A DNA stretch of 64,000 nucleotides, taken from positions 160,001 to 224,000 of the forward strand of contig JABCTZ010000036.1 in assembly GCA_018238155.1 (NCBI GenBank), written 5' to 3'. Below are positions 8,545 through 46,720 of this stretch, piece after piece. Each line of letters opens with the position of its first letter. Position 1 is the first letter of the stretch. Below the pieces are notes generated by a model. It was not told where the DNA came from and ran no database searches. It saw nothing but the letters and a program-made list of their open reading frames with translations. The translations under genes were made by a program, and so were the position numbers. Source of the DNA: Candidatus Heimdallarchaeota archaeon (GTDB lineage: Archaea > Asgardarchaeota > Heimdallarchaeia > JABLTI01).

Positions 8545-9036
8545 ATGAAACCACTAAGCCTCTGTTTAGTACAAATGGGAGACAAGGGACTTGAATTAGT
8601 ATCATCACATCCAAAGGTTTTACCAAAAGAAGTTCTAACTGAAATCACCTATAAATCAATGCCAATGGGTGCAAAGCCTGGAGAATTTGTTTCTTCATCT
8701 GTGAGTGATCTATTCTATTCAAGCTATATTTTCTCTTTACCAAGAGAAGATTCTCGAGACAATATTTGTGCTATTATCGCTATTTTTAGTGACATGAAAT
8801 ATAACATTGATGGAATTAGAAAAGTTTTCTCGTTTTTAATTAAGGAATTAGAAACAAAGACTCTTTTAAAATTAGATCTTATGGAGGAAATCTTACCTAA
8901 TCTCTATACTGGATTCAGTAAAGGAAACATTAGAATAAAGATTAGTTCAGTTGCAACAATCTCGATTGATTTTGAAACTAAAGAAGAAGAACCCAAAGAT
9001 GAAACTACTGATCTTGAAGATGATTTATGGAAATAA
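8545..9036 (+). CDS. uDENN/longin-like domain protein
   Basis: beta-'GDKGLEL'-P-helix-'KSMP'-beta-beta-'RD' pattern; paralogous to 38759..39538. Confidence 0.55.
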   Translation: MKPLSLCLVQMGDKGLELVSSHPKVLPKEVLTEITYKSMPMGAKPGEFVSSSVSDLFYSSYIFSLPREDSRDNICAIIAIFSDMKYNIDGIRKVFSFLIKELETKTLLKLDLMEEILPNLYTGFSKGNIRIKISSVATISIDFETKEEEPKDETTDLEDDLWK

Positions 9037-9065
9037 TGAAAGACTAAGAAAAGGAGTGTAATTGA

Positions 9066-9608
9066 GTGTCATTTCTACGAAATCTCTTTAGAAGAAAAAG
9101 AACAAAAGAAGTCGATATAACGATTTGTGGTTTAGCAAGTGCTGGAAAAACTACAATTGTAAAATACCTTGAAACAGGTCAATTTATTGATACACAACCA
9201 ACCATGGGTATTAATCGTGGTGAGACAATTAGTGTTGAAAAACTTGAAATAAATATTTTTGATCTTGGAGGTCAAGATGATTTCAGAGTTCTCTGGCCTG
9301 AAGTAAATGAGAATTCAGATGGAATAGTTTTTGTTGTTGATAAGCACGATACAATACAATTCGAAGAAGCCCGTTTGACATTTCAAGAAATTGTCAAATC
9401 ACAAATACATGAAGATGTAATCGTACTTGTTTTATTACACAAAAATGATCTGCCTGGCGGAATGTCTCGAAGTAGTTTTATTCAAGAATTTGATTTAATT
9501 GATTTATCTTTCAAATGGGCTTGCTATGAAACTTCTGCAAAAACTGGTGAGAACATCTTTGAAGCATTTAGATGGTTTTTTGATCAATTGATGGAGGAAT
9601 CTTCCTAA
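9066..9608 (+). CDS. Arf-family small GTPase
   Basis: G1 GLASAGKTT, G2 PTMG, G3 DLGGQ, G4 HKND, G5 TSAK; N-terminal amphipathic helix MSFLRNLFRRK. Confidence 0.92.
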   Translation: MSFLRNLFRRKRTKEVDITICGLASAGKTTIVKYLETGQFIDTQPTMGINRGETISVEKLEINIFDLGGQDDFRVLWPEVNENSDGIVFVVDKHDTIQFEEARLTFQEIVKSQIHEDVIVLVLLHKNDLPGGMSRSSFIQEFDLIDLSFKWACYETSAKTGENIFEAFRWFFDQLMEESS

Positions 9609-10465
9609 TGGTTAATGCTCTGACATTATATTATATTATTTTTTCATGGCTAACAGTTATTGTGAATATTGTTTTGGCAAGTGCTTTGTTACGAAACTTC
9701 ATCAGAAAAAAGACTCTTGGAACGATTATTCTTTTTGTCTCATACATGCTAATTGGTTTTAGTGCAATTTTAGCTGCAATTCATTACTCAGTAGCTTCAT
9801 TCAATATTAGTATAGAATTCATTGGTGTAAGTCAAACTCTAGCAACACTTTTTCCATTAATCGCATTACTGCAAATTTATGTTTTCTCTTGTAGACATAT
9901 TCTGAAAGATAATGAAGTTCTAAAGAACTTCCATTTAATTATCTTCTCTATAATAATTGGTAGTGTATTTACGATTTATTTGATGGCTGTATTTGGAATC
10001 ACACCTCAGCAACCTGGTTTCTTGTTTGCAGAAGATGTATCTCCATTATGGTATCAGATGTCAAGAAGTGATGTTGCAAATACAAGTCTCTTTAATCTTA
10101 CAGTACGTGCAAGTGTTATGGTTATTACCACCATTCAAATTTATATCAACTTGAGAATAATTATTAGAGCATTTATACTCTCTCGAAGAACTGATAGAAT
10201 TATTCGTAAACGCGGATTACAACTAATTGCAACGGGGTTATTAGTTTACCTTACAGCTGGAATAGTCATTGCTTTAGAAATGGCAATTTCATGGCCTGAA
10301 GGTAGCGCAATGCCAACAATTTTATGGACTTTGCGAAAGGTGATATTCATAACATCCTATCTAATCCTTTACTTGGGTTGGATTATGCCTGATTGGTTCA
10401 GACGTCGGCTACGAGGGAAAACTTGGTTTGAAATGCAATATAAAACAGTATCAAAACAATCTTAG
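9608..10465 (+). CDS. Seven-transmembrane protein (HisKA_7TM-like, no output domain)
   Basis: Seven hydrophobic segments by eye; ATG overlaps the GTPase stop (TAATG). Confidence 0.7.
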   Translation: MVNALTLYYIIFSWLTVIVNIVLASALLRNFIRKKTLGTIILFVSYMLIGFSAILAAIHYSVASFNISIEFIGVSQTLATLFPLIALLQIYVFSCRHILKDNEVLKNFHLIIFSIIIGSVFTIYLMAVFGITPQQPGFLFAEDVSPLWYQMSRSDVANTSLFNLTVRASVMVITTIQIYINLRIIIRAFILSRRTDRIIRKRGLQLIATGLLVYLTAGIVIALEMAISWPEGSAMPTILWTLRKVIFITSYLILYLGWIMPDWFRRRLRGKTWFEMQYKTVSKQS

Positions 10466-41886: not shown

Positions 41887-42966
41887 CTATTTCCAAATTA
41901 ACTCATCTAATCTTTTTATTAAATCAACATCTTCAGATTCAACAAAATAAGCACGTAAATCTTGAAGTAGAACTCTTCCAAAATAATCTGCTTCGATTTC
42001 TTGCAAAATGATTGCATTGTCAATAAGTCGAACCAATAATTCAAACTCATATTTCGAAGGATTTTTCTTAGAAAAATAGGTATTACATTCTATACCGGAA
42101 ATTCTCATAGTTGTTTTCTTAGGTGGAATAAGAGATTTTATTTTTTCATCATAAAACGAACGTTGAAGTTTGATAATTAAATCTCGAGTGAAGGCTTTGT
42201 TAAAAACTTGTTTTAATTCGGTTAAGGTTTTCCTTTGAATACTATCTTTTGGGTAAATATTCATATGAAGGTCAAATGCGAGAAAAACATTTCCTGTCCC
42301 AGTTCTTGTTGCAAATCCTTTCTCATCTCCTGGGATGATTACTTCTACAATTCGATCCAATGGACTCTTCTCAGAAGCTATTGAAATTAATGTGGACTTT
42401 TCATCTTTGCTGTAGGTTATTTTACTCCAAAAATCATTAAAATTATGAAGCAATACCTCTTTCATTTTTGCAATATCAACGATAACTTCTGCAGAAGTCT
42501 CACACTCAATTGTGTGCATTATACTAACATTTTGCTCGATTTTCAATTCCTTTTCTTGGAAACTCAGCTTGACAACTTTTTCTTTGGTAATGGTAAAATA
42601 ATCAATTGTTCTGGATGTACAGCGCGCAAAAGTAACAATTGAATTTAAGCCCGTAACTGACTTTTTTATCTTGCCTATTATTTCATTTGAAAACTCGTTA
42701 TTTGAATAAAACACTATTCCTACAATTTCTAATGAATACGGTAAAATATATTTTAGACTTGTCAGTTGATTAATATCATCTTGATTAATGGTAAATTGTT
42801 CACAATTTTCATGTCTCTTAGTGAAATGCATTCCAGATAAAATTGAAACTTTGTTTTCTTGAGCTTCAACAAAACCAATTAAGACTGAGAATTTTATCGA
42901 ATCTTTCTGTTGATTTGCTATAGCTTTTAGTTGTTTATTAACATCTTTTTTTATAAACAGTGTCAT
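41887..42966 (-). CDS. Hypothetical protein with N-terminal inactive MPN-like domain (possibly ODR-4-like)
   Basis: 'SVLIG' strand and 'ILPYSLEIVGIVF' in the MPN position, with no JAMM HxH. Confidence 0.45.
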   Translation of the reverse strand: MTLFIKKDVNKQLKAIANQQKDSIKFSVLIGFVEAQENKVSILSGMHFTKRHENCEQFTINQDDINQLTSLKYILPYSLEIVGIVFYSNNEFSNEIIGKIKKSVTGLNSIVTFARCTSRTIDYFTITKEKVVKLSFQEKELKIEQNVSIMHTIECETSAEVIVDIAKMKEVLLHNFNDFWSKITYSKDEKSTLISIASEKSPLDRIVEVIIPGDEKGFATRTGTGNVFLAFDLHMNIYPKDSIQRKTLTELKQVFNKAFTRDLIIKLQRSFYDEKIKSLIPPKKTTMRISGIECNTYFSKKNPSKYEFELLVRLIDNAIILQEIEADYFGRVLLQDLRAYFVESEDVDLIKRLDELIWK

Positions 42967-44137: not shown

Positions 44138-44755
44138 TTGAAAGATAAAGAAATAGTTCGACAAGGATATAATGAAATTGCTTCACAATATCATGCTGCA
44201 CGAAATGAAGAGCTAGCTGAGATGGAATTATTACCTGATTTTATGGAATTAATTCCTAAAGGTGGCAAAGTTCTAGATGCTGGATGTGGTGGAGGGCATC
44301 CTTTTACAAAATTACTGAGCAATCATTTTGATGTTCTTGGTGTAGATTTTTCAGAAAAACAAATAGAATTAGCAAAGAAAAATGCTCCTCAAGCAGATTT
44401 TCGATGTTTAGATATGACTAAATTATCCTTTATTGATGAATATTTCAATGGAATCTTCTCTTACTATGCGATAATTCACATTCCTCGAGAAGAACAGTAT
44501 GATTTGCTAACCAATTTTTACCGAATGCTAAAACCAAACGGAGTCGCACTATTAACATTTCATAGTAAGGATGATCCCGGTTCGTATTTCGATGATTTTT
44601 TTGGCACCAATATGTTTTGGAGCGGTTATAATTCTGAAACAAATATTGCAATGGTTAAGAAAGCTGGTTTTGAAATCATTTGGTCTAAATTTATTGCTGA
44701 TAGTTTGGGTGATTCTATTCATCATTTTATGCTTCTTGAGAAAAAGAGCAAATAG
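44138..44755 (+). CDS. Class I SAM-dependent methyltransferase
   Basis: VLDAGCGGG, GVDFS, YYAIIHIPRE. Confidence 0.88.
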   Translation: MKDKEIVRQGYNEIASQYHAARNEELAEMELLPDFMELIPKGGKVLDAGCGGGHPFTKLLSNHFDVLGVDFSEKQIELAKKNAPQADFRCLDMTKLSFIDEYFNGIFSYYAIIHIPREEQYDLLTNFYRMLKPNGVALLTFHSKDDPGSYFDDFFGTNMFWSGYNSETNIAMVKKAGFEIIWSKFIADSLGDSIHHFMLLEKKSK

Positions 44756-44881
44756 AATAATGAACTCTTCCATTAATTTTTTATAATTTGAATATATGTT
44801 AAACTGTGAGCGCAGTTATATCACAATGATATATACACTAAAATTGAAATAAGGTTTTAGTGAAGTTCGGTGTGAACATCT

Positions 44882-46720
44882 ATGGTTGAGTTTGGCTTAG
44901 ATTTCTATTTAATAATAATATTATCTTTTATTGAATTAGTCATACTTGCTATTTTCACCGTTCTATATTTCAAGAAGAAGCAACCTGCTTTCCAAGCTTT
45001 AATAATTTCTGCACTTCTATTTCTTATGGGAAATATTGTATCTATCATTCATATTTTAATGCCACACTTGGTTGGATTACTTTTCTTTCAAGGACTGTTA
45101 GGTGCAGCCGGACTTGCTCCTATTGTTGTTTTCCTTGAGATTTTTGAAAATGGAACCTCTTTTAATCAAAGGAGTTCTTCATCAGTTATTTTCATTCTAC
45201 TTATTGGTGCAATTAAGGGTGGCTCGAAAGTACTAGTCGCAATAAGTGATATATTACAAGATTTACCAATAGAGTTTGGATTAAGAAGTATCTTGAATTC
45301 TACAGAAGTAGAGTTGGGAAAATTCTTCAGTTTTATAGCACCAATATTGTTTATTCTAGTTGGTTCTCTGTATGTCAATACTCTCTCCAAAATGAAGGAT
45401 CGTATTCGCTTTGAAAATCAAAAGAAGAAGATTCGAAAAGTAAAAACAGGCGTTTATCTTACATTTATTATACCTAAATTTATTTCCGGGTCTATTTTCA
45501 CTTTGAGTATTTTACCTGTATTTATCTTCAAAGATTTCGATATTAATCTTATATTGGGTCAATCTAATATTTTCGATTTGATTGTTAATGCTATTCAAAT
45601 TACAGGTTTAGTAGTCTTGAGTTTACCTATTATTGTCAGTGGTTCAGTATTCTTCATGCAATCAAGGAAAGTTTCAAGGTTAATAGTTATTAATAGAGAT
45701 GCTATCCCAATCTTTGAGTTTGCTTTTGAAAAGGAAGATTCATTCTGTGACGATGTGATGCTTAAAGAGGCTTACAATTCTATTAGTTCAATAATGAATG
45801 ATGGGGGTATAGCTTGTCAAGAATTAAAGTCAATGAATTTTAGTGATGTACAGATCATGGTGGACGTTAGAGATGATTTTGCTGTTTTATTAGTTACAGA
45901 TAGACCAACATTGTTCTTAAACAAAGCAGTGGAATCTTTTGCGAATGATTTTCAATTAATATTCCCTCAAAATTCAGACTTAAATCAAATTAGAACTCAG
46001 AAGATTAAATTTACTACTGAGAAAATGATTCAGAAAAACTTTAGTTTGGAACAAGAAGAAATTGAACAGATACGCTCAATTGTTAGTATAGGTTTTGACA
46101 AAGTAGGAATTAAATATTCGAAAATGAGATTGGAATCTGATGAAGAAGTGCAATTACTTCCGGATTTCATGAATCGCTTACCATCTAACGCTTTAGTTTT
46201 GGATGCAGGTTGTGGTGCAGGTGAACCAATTACCAAAATTCTAAGTGAACGTTTCAATGTGGTTGGAGTTGATGTTTCACGAAAACAAGTTGAAGCTGCT
46301 CGAAGAATACTTCCGGCATGTGAGTTCATCTGGCAAGATATGACTACACTTGCGTATCCTAATGGTCATTTTGATGGAATTATTTCTTACTATGCTATAC
46401 AACATGTTCCAAGAGAAGAACACATTGGGTTAATAGATAATTTCTACCGAATGCTAAAAGAAGGTGGATATGCTCTGCTCTGTTTTGGCACGGATGATGA
46501 TCAAGGGACAGTTATTGATGATTTCTTTGGTGTGAAAATGTATTGGAGTAGTTTTGATGCAGGGACAAATGTTGAAATGTTAAAAGAAACAGGATTCCAT
46601 GTTACATGGTTAAAATTCATCTTCGATGACTTGACAGAGGAACAACATATTTTTGTTTTAGCTCAAAAACCACACAAAGAACTACTTGATGAAATAAAAG
46701 AGAGAAAAAGAATTGATTGA
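44882..46720 (+). CDS. Multi-TM (about 7TM) - longin-like - SAM methyltransferase fusion protein
   Basis: Hydrophobic residues about 1-260; 'RLIVINRDAIPIFEFAF...LKSMNF...AVLLVTDR...FANDF' longin pattern; C-terminal VLDAGCGAG domain. Confidence 0.75.
   Translation: MVEFGLDFYLIIILSFIELVILAIFTVLYFKKKQPAFQALIISALLFLMGNIVSIIHILMPHLVGLLFFQGLLGAAGLAPIVVFLEIFENGTSFNQRSSSSVIFILLIGAIKGGSKVLVAISDILQDLPIEFGLRSILNSTEVELGKFFSFIAPILFILVGSLYVNTLSKMKDRIRFENQKKKIRKVKTGVYLTFIIPKFISGSIFTLSILPVFIFKDFDINLILGQSNIFDLIVNAIQITGLVVLSLPIIVSGSVFFMQSRKVSRLIVINRDAIPIFEFAFEKEDSFCDDVMLKEAYNSISSIMNDGGIACQELKSMNFSDVQIMVDVRDDFAVLLVTDRPTLFLNKAVESFANDFQLIFPQNSDLNQIRTQKIKFTTEKMIQKNFSLEQEEIEQIRSIVSIGFDKVGIKYSKMRLESDEEVQLLPDFMNRLPSNALVLDAGCGAGEPITKILSERFNVVGVDVSRKQVEAARRILPACEFIWQDMTTLAYPNGHFDGIISYYAIQHVPREEHIGLIDNFYRMLKEGGYALLCFGTDDDQGTVIDDFFGVKMYWSSFDAGTNVEMLKETGFHVTWLKFIFDDLTEEQHIFVLAQKPHKELLDEIKERKRID

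Follow-up and report, generated by a model that had tools for sequence, protein, structure and literature searches.

The stretch of DNA analyzed here (the window) comprises 64,000 nucleotides of a Candidatus Heimdallarchaeota archaeon, corresponding to positions 160,001–224,000 on the forward strand of contig JABCTZ010000036.1, with a G+C content of ~32%. Between positions 44138 and 46720 of the window lie two consecutive genes on the same strand. The first one encodes a free class I S-adenosylmethionine (SAM)-dependent methyltransferase (P0001), and the second one a 612-residue protein (P0002) in which a seven-transmembrane (7TM) domain is followed by a predicted longin-type domain and by another methyltransferase domain, of the same family as P0001. 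The features of this region are the following:

44138..44755, plus strand: free class I SAM methyltransferase P0001, 205 residues, TTG start, matching Pfam Methyltransf_25 (E 4e-20) and Methyltransf_11 (E 5e-19)
44756..44881, plus strand: AT-rich spacer of 126 bp between the two genes, read directly
44882..46720, plus strand: 7TM-longin-methyltransferase gene P0002, 612 residues, ATG start, a single open frame
44882..45637, plus strand: seven-helix membrane domain, residues 1–252, with the N terminus outside and the C terminus inside, assigned from hydropathy and AlphaFold2 helices
45242..45286, plus strand: 15-residue insertion in outer loop 2, residues 121–135, opposite a gap in all 25 other sequences of alignment A1
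45401..45439, plus strand: invariant basic motif R-I-R-F-E-N-Q-K-K-K-I-R-K of cytoplasmic loop 3, residues 174–186
45638..45670, plus strand: linker from transmembrane helix 7 (TM7) to the longin-type domain, residues 253–263, the most conserved stretch of the protein
45671..46039, plus strand: longin-type domain, residues 264–386, predicted order β-β-α-β-β-β-α-α, assigned from the domain model and fold searches
46040..46072, plus strand: fusion junction, residues 387–397, a short conserved connector predicted to be helical (conservation 0.78)
46073..46678, plus strand: class I SAM methyltransferase domain, residues 398–599, a paralog of 44138–44755 (BLASTP, Pfam)
46679..46720, plus strand: charged, variable C-terminal tail, residues 600–612, and the stop codon (conservation 0.46; the length differs among homologs)

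The spacer between the two genes is 126 bp long here and 140–170 bp in relatives, and thus these are two distinct genes with no translational coupling between them. BLASTP alignment of P0001 with residues 398–599 of P0002 extends over 202 columns without a gap, with 48% identity and 66% positives (E 1e-68), a likeness far beyond chance. The segments LLPDFM, VLDAGCG, SYYAI.H.PREE, NFYRMLK, and DDFFG..M.WS all fall within this alignment, and the SAM-binding motifs are present in both proteins. Both claims of the initial annotation, colinearity of the C-terminal ~200 residues of 44882..46720 with the adjacent 205-residue enzyme and an intact SAM motif in each of the two, are therefore upheld. The Pfam scores for Methyltransf_25 and Methyltransf_11 are 72.6 and 69.3 bits for P0001 and 68.1 and 59.0 bits for P0002 (cut-offs 27 and 21.2), with E 1e-18 for the match of Methyltransf_25 to P0002. 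In this genome (4.08 Mb, 46 contigs) the two are mutually the nearest methyltransferase paralogs, at 48% identity compared to at most 32% for the next six. The homologs of P0001 are 203–208 residues long and have the start region in common.

The N-terminal part of P0002 contains seven hydrophobic segments that are evident from hydropathy. In the whole-protein AlphaFold2 model, built on 26 homologs (mean predicted local distance difference test score, pLDDT, of 76), long helices are placed at residues 6–32, 35–59, 65–90, 96–126, 140–174, 178–215, and 228–252, and they are followed by elements in the order β-β-α-β-β-β-α-α (residues 264–386), by a long helix, and then by a Rossmann-type methyltransferase. 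Lysine and arginine residues are distributed unevenly, with 14 of them in the inner loops and the linker and two in the outer loops and the N terminus, which places the N terminus outside and the longin-type and methyltransferase parts inside. Hydropathy, the AlphaFold2 model, and the fold searches described below all point to the architecture that had been proposed initially, namely a 7TM domain, a longin-type domain, and a class I methyltransferase. Residues 1–410 have no match in Pfam, and no known 7TM family was matched by residues 1–270 or by 13 members of the 7TM-longin family at E values up to 1, where scattered single matches only were found. A language-model search with residues 1–262 gave scores of 0.85–0.86, which are below the 0.9 level, and included one cluster in which HisKA_7TM was present on 10% of the members (score 0.85). 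The ESM Atlas search with the whole model returned methyltransferase clusters only and was uninformative for the transmembrane part.

Conservation along the chain was expressed as the mean frequency of the top residue in an alignment of 26 fused sequences (A1). The linker between TM7 and the longin-type domain scores 0.92, with seven of its 11 residues invariant, and cytoplasmic loops 2 and 3 score 0.82 and 0.81, respectively, with nine of the 21 residues of loop 3 invariant. The outer loops score 0.31, 0.12, and 0.48 and carry insertions and deletions, outer loop 2 being the least conserved region. Three polar residues located inside the transmembrane region, E86, K199, and Q239, are invariant, as are 49 of the 182 residues in the region 416–597 of the methyltransferase domain. 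Such a conserved cytoplasmic face, combined with variable outer loops, offers no support for a conserved external ligand site and fits a membrane platform with its working surface directed toward the cytoplasm and the attached domains. The insertion of residues 121–135 is in-frame and is found in the copy from this genome only, being absent even from homologs at 85–88% identity.

When the middle domain is folded alone, the model reaches pLDDT of 78.5 and a predicted TM-score of 0.76. In both this and the whole-protein model, DSSP assigns strands to residues 264–271, 276–281, 317–320, 323–329, and 333–339, and helices to residues 291–306, 344–360, and 372–386, with strand 1 directly following the TM7 linker. 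Longins are defined by the order β-β-α-β-β-β-α-α, with no N-terminal helix and with an extra C-terminal helix (PMC10933270), and the predicted order of elements in the middle domain agrees with that definition. A Foldseek search against the PDB yielded ζ-COP, AP2 sigma, TRAPP Bet5, and dynein roadblock (E 1e-4 and up). In the exhaustive structural alignment with VIA-align against 48,161 chains, nearly all of the top 50 rows are longin or roadblock proteins, with root-mean-square deviations (rmsd) of 2.6–3.8 Å over 97–124 residues. The highest Z scores belong to MglC, AP-3 sigma, and the SYBL1 longin (10.5), with the VAMP7 longin at 10.4 and Sec22 at 9.6, and the top set also includes MglB (10.2–10.5). 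The aligned lengths differ, with 117 residues for AP-3 sigma and 124 for the SYBL1 longin, compared to 97–104 residues for MglC and MglB at equal Z; the longin matches span residues 6–134 of the model, including the last helix, whereas the roadblock matches end near residue 105. No curated longin or roadblock profile in Pfam matches residues 255–410, and among the 13 family members the sole match of this kind is Robl_LC7 at E 0.11, in one member. A short relative, P0050, matches Robl_LC7 at E 1.5e-4, below the cut-off. Since the structural match is not accompanied by one to a curated profile, the assignment of the middle domain as longin-type, made in the initial annotation and agreed upon by the predicted structure and the fold searches, applies at the level of the fold only.

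The eukaryotic and bacterial longin/roadblock platforms (AP sigma, ζ-COP, TRAPP Bet5/Trs23, the longins of VAMP7 and Sec22, MglB/MglC, and LAMTOR) share with the model the fold and the order of strands (Z 9–10.5), but only 6–14% of sequence identity, and the domain of P0002 differs from them in being covalently joined to a seven-helix domain and an enzyme. For roadblock and longin proteins, a dimer formed through helix 1 and the edge strand has been described (PMC10933270), and a similar arrangement is predicted here. The homodimer of the longin-type domain was predicted with a score of 0.46, compared to 0.00 for the best control (pLDDT 71), with no less than 86% of contacts in common among the three runs; of 30 solved homodimers, 20 reach the mark that it passes, and of 23 proteins solved as single chains, one does. 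The predicted interface is made by helix 1 and strand 3. As this is the known mode of dimerization of longin and roadblock proteins, the pass may reflect likeness to the solved dimers. Dimers of Asgard longin/roadblock proteins form like the others, and such dimers serve as platforms for small GTPases, from bacteria to eukaryotes (PMC10933270).

A search with residues 1–410 retrieved 33 protein clusters with lengths of ~550–650 residues and with 46–86% identity, and the methyltransferase is fused in all of them. The clusters originate from NCBI, JGI, ENA, and Logan assemblies and carry the labels Heimdallarchaeota, Asgard group, and Thorarchaeota. In a survey of 83 species genomes from this class, the fused form is present in the window's own genome and in all 11 other sampled genomes of its family, and the other families have no fused form and contain free methyltransferases only. 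The ten best matches have no internal stop; nine of them are full length and one is ended by the end of the contig. As independent assemblies share the fusion, misassembly is excluded, and the claim that the fusion is genuine and kept in relatives is thus borne out.

The 7TM-longin module also exists without the enzyme. A profile of residues 1–395, run against 1.84 billion representatives, gave 313 matches, mostly of ~370 residues and with no methyltransferase, and these free forms align over the whole 374-position profile of the seven helices and the longin-type domain. The examples with names are hypothetical proteins of Hodarchaeales and Kariarchaeaceae, not assigned to any Pfam family. Across the phylum, a 7TM-longin match is present in 81 of the 251 genomes sampled, and the E values are separated by a wide gap, with fused orthologs at 1e-171 or better and everything else at 1e-21 or worse. 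The free Asgard proteins have in common with P0002 the seven helices, the motif in the linker between TM7 and the longin-type domain, the longin-type domain itself, and the F-G-L motif at its end, but they lack the methyltransferase and are only 17–28% identical to P0002. In loop 3 they retain a weaker Q-K-K core, and in the linker a related F-L/M-Q-P/S motif. The free proteins of ~375 residues end at the F-G-L motif, which corresponds to residues 387–389 of the fused protein, and the homology to methyltransferases starts at residue 398, so that the junction between these two points consists of about ten conserved residues predicted to be helical. Thus the free proteins stop exactly where the fused one goes on, as would be expected if a 7TM-longin gene had captured a methyltransferase. 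The closest unfused protein, P0036, is encoded by a complete gene and has 397 residues and 28% identity to P0002. On its contig (JGI 3300042731, 4281 bp) a class I methyltransferase of 224 residues is located ~480 bp upstream, with a small gene on the opposite strand in between.

The free methyltransferases of ~205 residues (Methyltransf_25/11, annotated as UbiE-like) form a family with 817 clusters at E 1e-10 or better, and the fused domain aligns with them end to end, but its clade is separate from theirs and is confined to one archaeal family. Clusters annotated as Chloroflexota and Zixibacteria are 52–59% identical to the free gene, which is above the 48% between that gene and its fused neighbor. 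The best ESM Atlas cluster superimposes on the model with a TM-score of 0.93 and rmsd of 1.6 Å over 202 residues, and most of the clusters listed are bacterial. A maximum-likelihood tree was built from 27 fused domains, 74 free proteins, and three outgroups; in it the fused domains form one clade, with support in the Shimodaira–Hasegawa-like approximate likelihood ratio test (SH-aLRT) of 80 for all 27 and of 97 without the most divergent member. The free gene of the window belongs to a separate clade of 53, with support of 93. The single clade of fused domains supports one fusion event, as far as the tree can tell, and the adjacent gene is a plausible source of the fused domain. The proposal made initially, that a duplicated methyltransferase had been captured, therefore stands with respect to membership in one family and to capture by a 7TM-longin gene. 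The event is not a recent local duplication, the fused domains representing an old, separate clade, for which the tree gave no resolved sister relationship to the adjacent free genes.

Conservation within the two clades bears on the chemistry of the fused enzyme. In 44 alignment columns, conservation reaches 90% or more in each of the two clades, the columns of the SAM motifs, H-x-P-R-x-E, and M-x-W-S among them, and no column is conserved but different. The segment D-A-G-C-G-x-G (residues 441–447), D464, and D486 are invariant in the 26 fused homologs and at least 90% conserved in the 74 free ones. Since all 44 positions conserved in the family are kept, the chemistry of the fused enzyme is probably the same as that of the free ones.

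The two genes stay together in relatives. In relatives whose fused proteins are 54% and 47% identical to P0002, the free gene immediately precedes the fused one, within a shared block that consists of genes for pyruvate kinase, a 363-residue protein, an epimerase, the methyltransferase pair, an aminotransferase, aIF2-alpha, and Nop10. Adjacency of the free and fused genes was seen at four loci (L003, L005, L035, and L036). In L036 the upstream block differs and the epimerase is gone, yet the pair of methyltransferases stays, and in L035 a second free copy is found downstream of the fused gene; overall, the number of free copies varies from one to three. The claim that the domain is of the same family as the adjacent gene, and that the pair stays adjacent in relatives, is thus supported. 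As the conserved block holds unrelated housekeeping genes, adjacency provides moderate support only for a functional link. In two genomes of the same genus as each other, two or three tandem free methyltransferases lie directly upstream of the fused gene (G072:C88:2267–6124, locus L023, and G074:C106:2637–5874, locus L022). Interpretation of the region as a sugar-modification cluster comprising the epimerase, the aminotransferase, and the two methyltransferases was considered and dropped, with the block including pyruvate kinase, aIF2-alpha, and Nop10, and with L036 lacking the epimerase.

The reading that we favor, with chances of being right and wrong that appear to us about equal, is that the 612-residue protein is a membrane-tethered, probably dimeric SAM-dependent methyltransferase, in which the fusion changed the location and the control of the enzyme and not its chemistry. 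The conserved surface of the seven-helix domain faces the cytoplasm, two copies of the longin-type domain are predicted to associate by means of helix 1 and the edge strand, in the manner of longin/roadblock platforms, and the short conserved connector, predicted to be helical, joins this domain to a class I methyltransferase that has kept its SAM motifs. Such a protein would have originated in the ancestor of one family of the Heimdall group, where a 7TM-longin gene of Asgard-wide distribution would have fused once with a gene of the ~205-residue methyltransferase family. The reaction of the fused enzyme would then take place on the inner side of the membrane, with the 7TM-longin module as its platform, and the free paralog would be responsible for the same or a neighboring methylation step in the cytosol. 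The retention of every residue that the free family conserves makes it most likely that the fusion left the chemistry as it was and altered place and control. Among classes of substrate, a small molecule or a lipid head group would be the likeliest.

Several points weigh against this picture. The invariant polar residues E86, K199, and Q239 could form a ligand or substrate site, in which case the membrane domain would be more than an anchor. With regard to origin, the tree gives no resolved order for its four deep groups, so that derivation of the fused domain from the neighboring gene is at most plausible. Adjacency itself may in part result from slow rearrangement of a block that includes pyruvate kinase, aIF2-alpha, and Nop10. 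The structural statements are predictions of medium confidence (mean pLDDT 76–78). As for the substrate, phosphoethanolamine N-methyltransferases are the nearest among solved sequences (E 3e-16), but the alignment to them is confined to the generic Rossmann core, and no NCBIfam model reached its cut-off, the best one being the DVU_1556 family with 58 bits against 155.

An alternative that we consider unlikely is a one-component transmembrane receptor, in which the bundle would sense an external or in-membrane signal, a longin dimer would relay it, and the methyltransferase would be the regulated output. The predicted topology places the enzyme on the cytoplasmic end of the seven helices, as in bacterial 7TM receptors, the short and conserved helical connector would be suitable for rigid coupling, and the invariant polar residues within the membrane, together with the sub-threshold lead to HisKA_7TM, point in the same direction. 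The bacterial families 7TMR-DISM and HisKA_7TM likewise combine seven helices with a cytoplasmic C-terminal catalytic domain, but P0002 has neither a sequence match to them nor an extracellular domain or a conserved outer surface, and its longin-type domain is inserted between the membrane part and the output. A methyltransferase output is not known for either family. The outer loops of P0002 are short and, with scores of 0.12–0.48, the least conserved, all strongly conserved loop motifs are cytoplasmic (0.81–0.92, the linker included), none of the 13 family members matches a 7TM receptor family in Pfam, and most relatives of the module carry no enzymatic output at all. The description of the membrane part as a sensor, and of the protein as a "receptor methyltransferase", found in the initial annotation, is thus not supported.

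It is rather improbable, in our estimate, that the protein is a lipid head-group or phospho-base N-methyltransferase, similar to PMT or PmtA and acting at the inner leaflet, with the free paralogs carrying out other methylation steps. Among solved sequences, phosphoethanolamine N-methyltransferases from plants and Plasmodium are indeed the nearest (E 3e-16 to 1e-10), the structure 8ys9, of a phosphatidylethanolamine N-methyltransferase, is also matched (E 7e-5), and the NCBIfam PmtA model gives E 3e-4, although its 20.8 bits are far below the cut-off of 390. The presence of one to three tandem free copies would fit stepwise methylation. Another branch of the transmembrane-longin proteins is fused to an endonuclease/exonuclease/phosphatase domain, a superfamily that includes lipid phosphatases and sphingomyelinases. 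The phosphoethanolamine enzymes (5wp5, 5wp4, 4iv8, and 3uj6, E 3e-16 to 9e-6) share with P0002 the SAM-binding core and the D-x-I-x-S...H segment, but they consist of 260–490 residues, compared to ~205 here, and the alignment is weak in their substrate lid or stops before it. The similarity is therefore confined to the SAM-binding core, for which many unrelated small-molecule methyltransferases score almost equally well. Moreover, the free family is also found at above 50% identity in the clusters annotated as Chloroflexota and Zixibacteria, which implies no role specific to archaeal lipids.

A more speculative proposal, which we also regard as having a rather small chance of being correct, is that of a gated membrane methyltransferase with no described counterpart in any domain of life, in which the longin dimer would couple the bundle to the catalytic domain or would recruit an Asgard small GTPase. 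If true, a signal or the state of a GTPase would act as the switch for methylation at the membrane, and this protein would be the first case of a longin platform in archaea that carries an enzymatic readout.

Quite unlikely, in turn, is the narrower possibility that the longin dimer, anchored in the membrane, recruits a small GTPase resembling Arf, Rag, or Rab, which either controls the enzyme or is methylated by it. It draws on the role of longin/roadblock dimers as platforms for small GTPases, with the Asgard ones dimerizing likewise (PMC10933270), on the predicted interface made by helix 1 and strand 3, and on the presence in the same window of a longin-Arf-7TM cassette (8545–10465). No GTPase gene adjoins the fused gene or the three free 7TM-longin paralogs of this genome, and kinship of the module with the cassette was not detectable, the profiles of the module and of its longin-type domain giving hhalign probabilities below 1% against the 7TM and longin proteins of the cassette, in a test that is weak because the templates were single sequences. 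No family match indicates methylation of proteins; in Pfam, the SAM-binding domain of CheR was matched by P0001 below the cut-off (E 0.026, 14.4 bits against 27) and was not listed for P0002.

Finally, there is next to no chance that P0002 is an artefact of misassembly or of a missed stop codon joining two genes. The same uninterrupted frame is found in ten further genomes of the family, the 33 clusters come from four data sources that are independent of each other and reach down to 46% identity, and the residues of the junction are conserved.

The architecture of P0002 is real, and no earlier description of a 7TM-longin or a 7TM-longin-methyltransferase protein was found in the open-access full-text literature, a scope that leaves most subscription journals outside. 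Each of the three domains is of a known kind, and it is their combination that is undescribed in the texts searched. A 2026 preprint (PMC13734099) keeps "7TM proteins" apart from "TRAPPC2-like longins", listing each as an Asgard family in its own right. Longin and roadblock domains count among the signature proteins by which Asgard archaea are connected to the membrane traffic of eukaryotes; little is known of what they do in archaea, and gene order is a poor guide to their partners (PMC10933270). The family described here anchors a longin-type domain in the membrane and, within a single lineage, also joins it to an enzyme with measurable activity, so that turnover of SAM could provide an assay for the response of a membrane-bound longin platform in archaea. 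The 7TM-longin module is a reusable scaffold, to which at least two catalytic domains have been added, a methyltransferase and one of the endonuclease/exonuclease/phosphatase family.

The latter domain is found in two proteins of Kariarchaeaceae, P0072 and P0185 (781 and 1021 residues), where it occupies the C terminus in place of the methyltransferase. Matches to the TM7-longin region were also found in frames of ~555–560 and 700–790 residues from other Asgard families (G199:C41:8213–8674, G227:C51:66390–66683, and G066:C20:31569–31922), which may represent further architectures of the module.

Three free 7TM-longin paralogs, with open frames of 361–401 residues, are present in the genome of the window:

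G000:C41:179368–179751: free 7TM-longin paralog (L031)
G000:C3:42994–43632: free 7TM-longin paralog (L032), ~750 bp from a gene for CDP-archaeol synthase
G000:C41:447–761: free 7TM-longin paralog (L033), at the start of its contig, also with a bacterial TSP3 repeat

Their neighbors include genes for ribosomal proteins, a class I tRNA synthetase, and CDP-archaeol synthase, and no gene for a GTPase or a methyltransferase was found beside any of the three. The context of the paralogs was considered as a source of functional clues and provided none, the neighbors being housekeeping genes.

Two further observations concern the surroundings of the methyltransferase pair. In L035 (6003–7757, plus strand), a gene encoding a 584-residue protein of the beta-lactamase family and a further free methyltransferase come after the fused gene, in place of the aminotransferase present elsewhere. 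In the window itself, positions 41887–42966 of the minus strand encode a 359-residue protein with no match in Pfam, and its counterparts, with 363–364 residues, occupy the same place in relatives in which the identity of the fused neighbor is as low as 47%.

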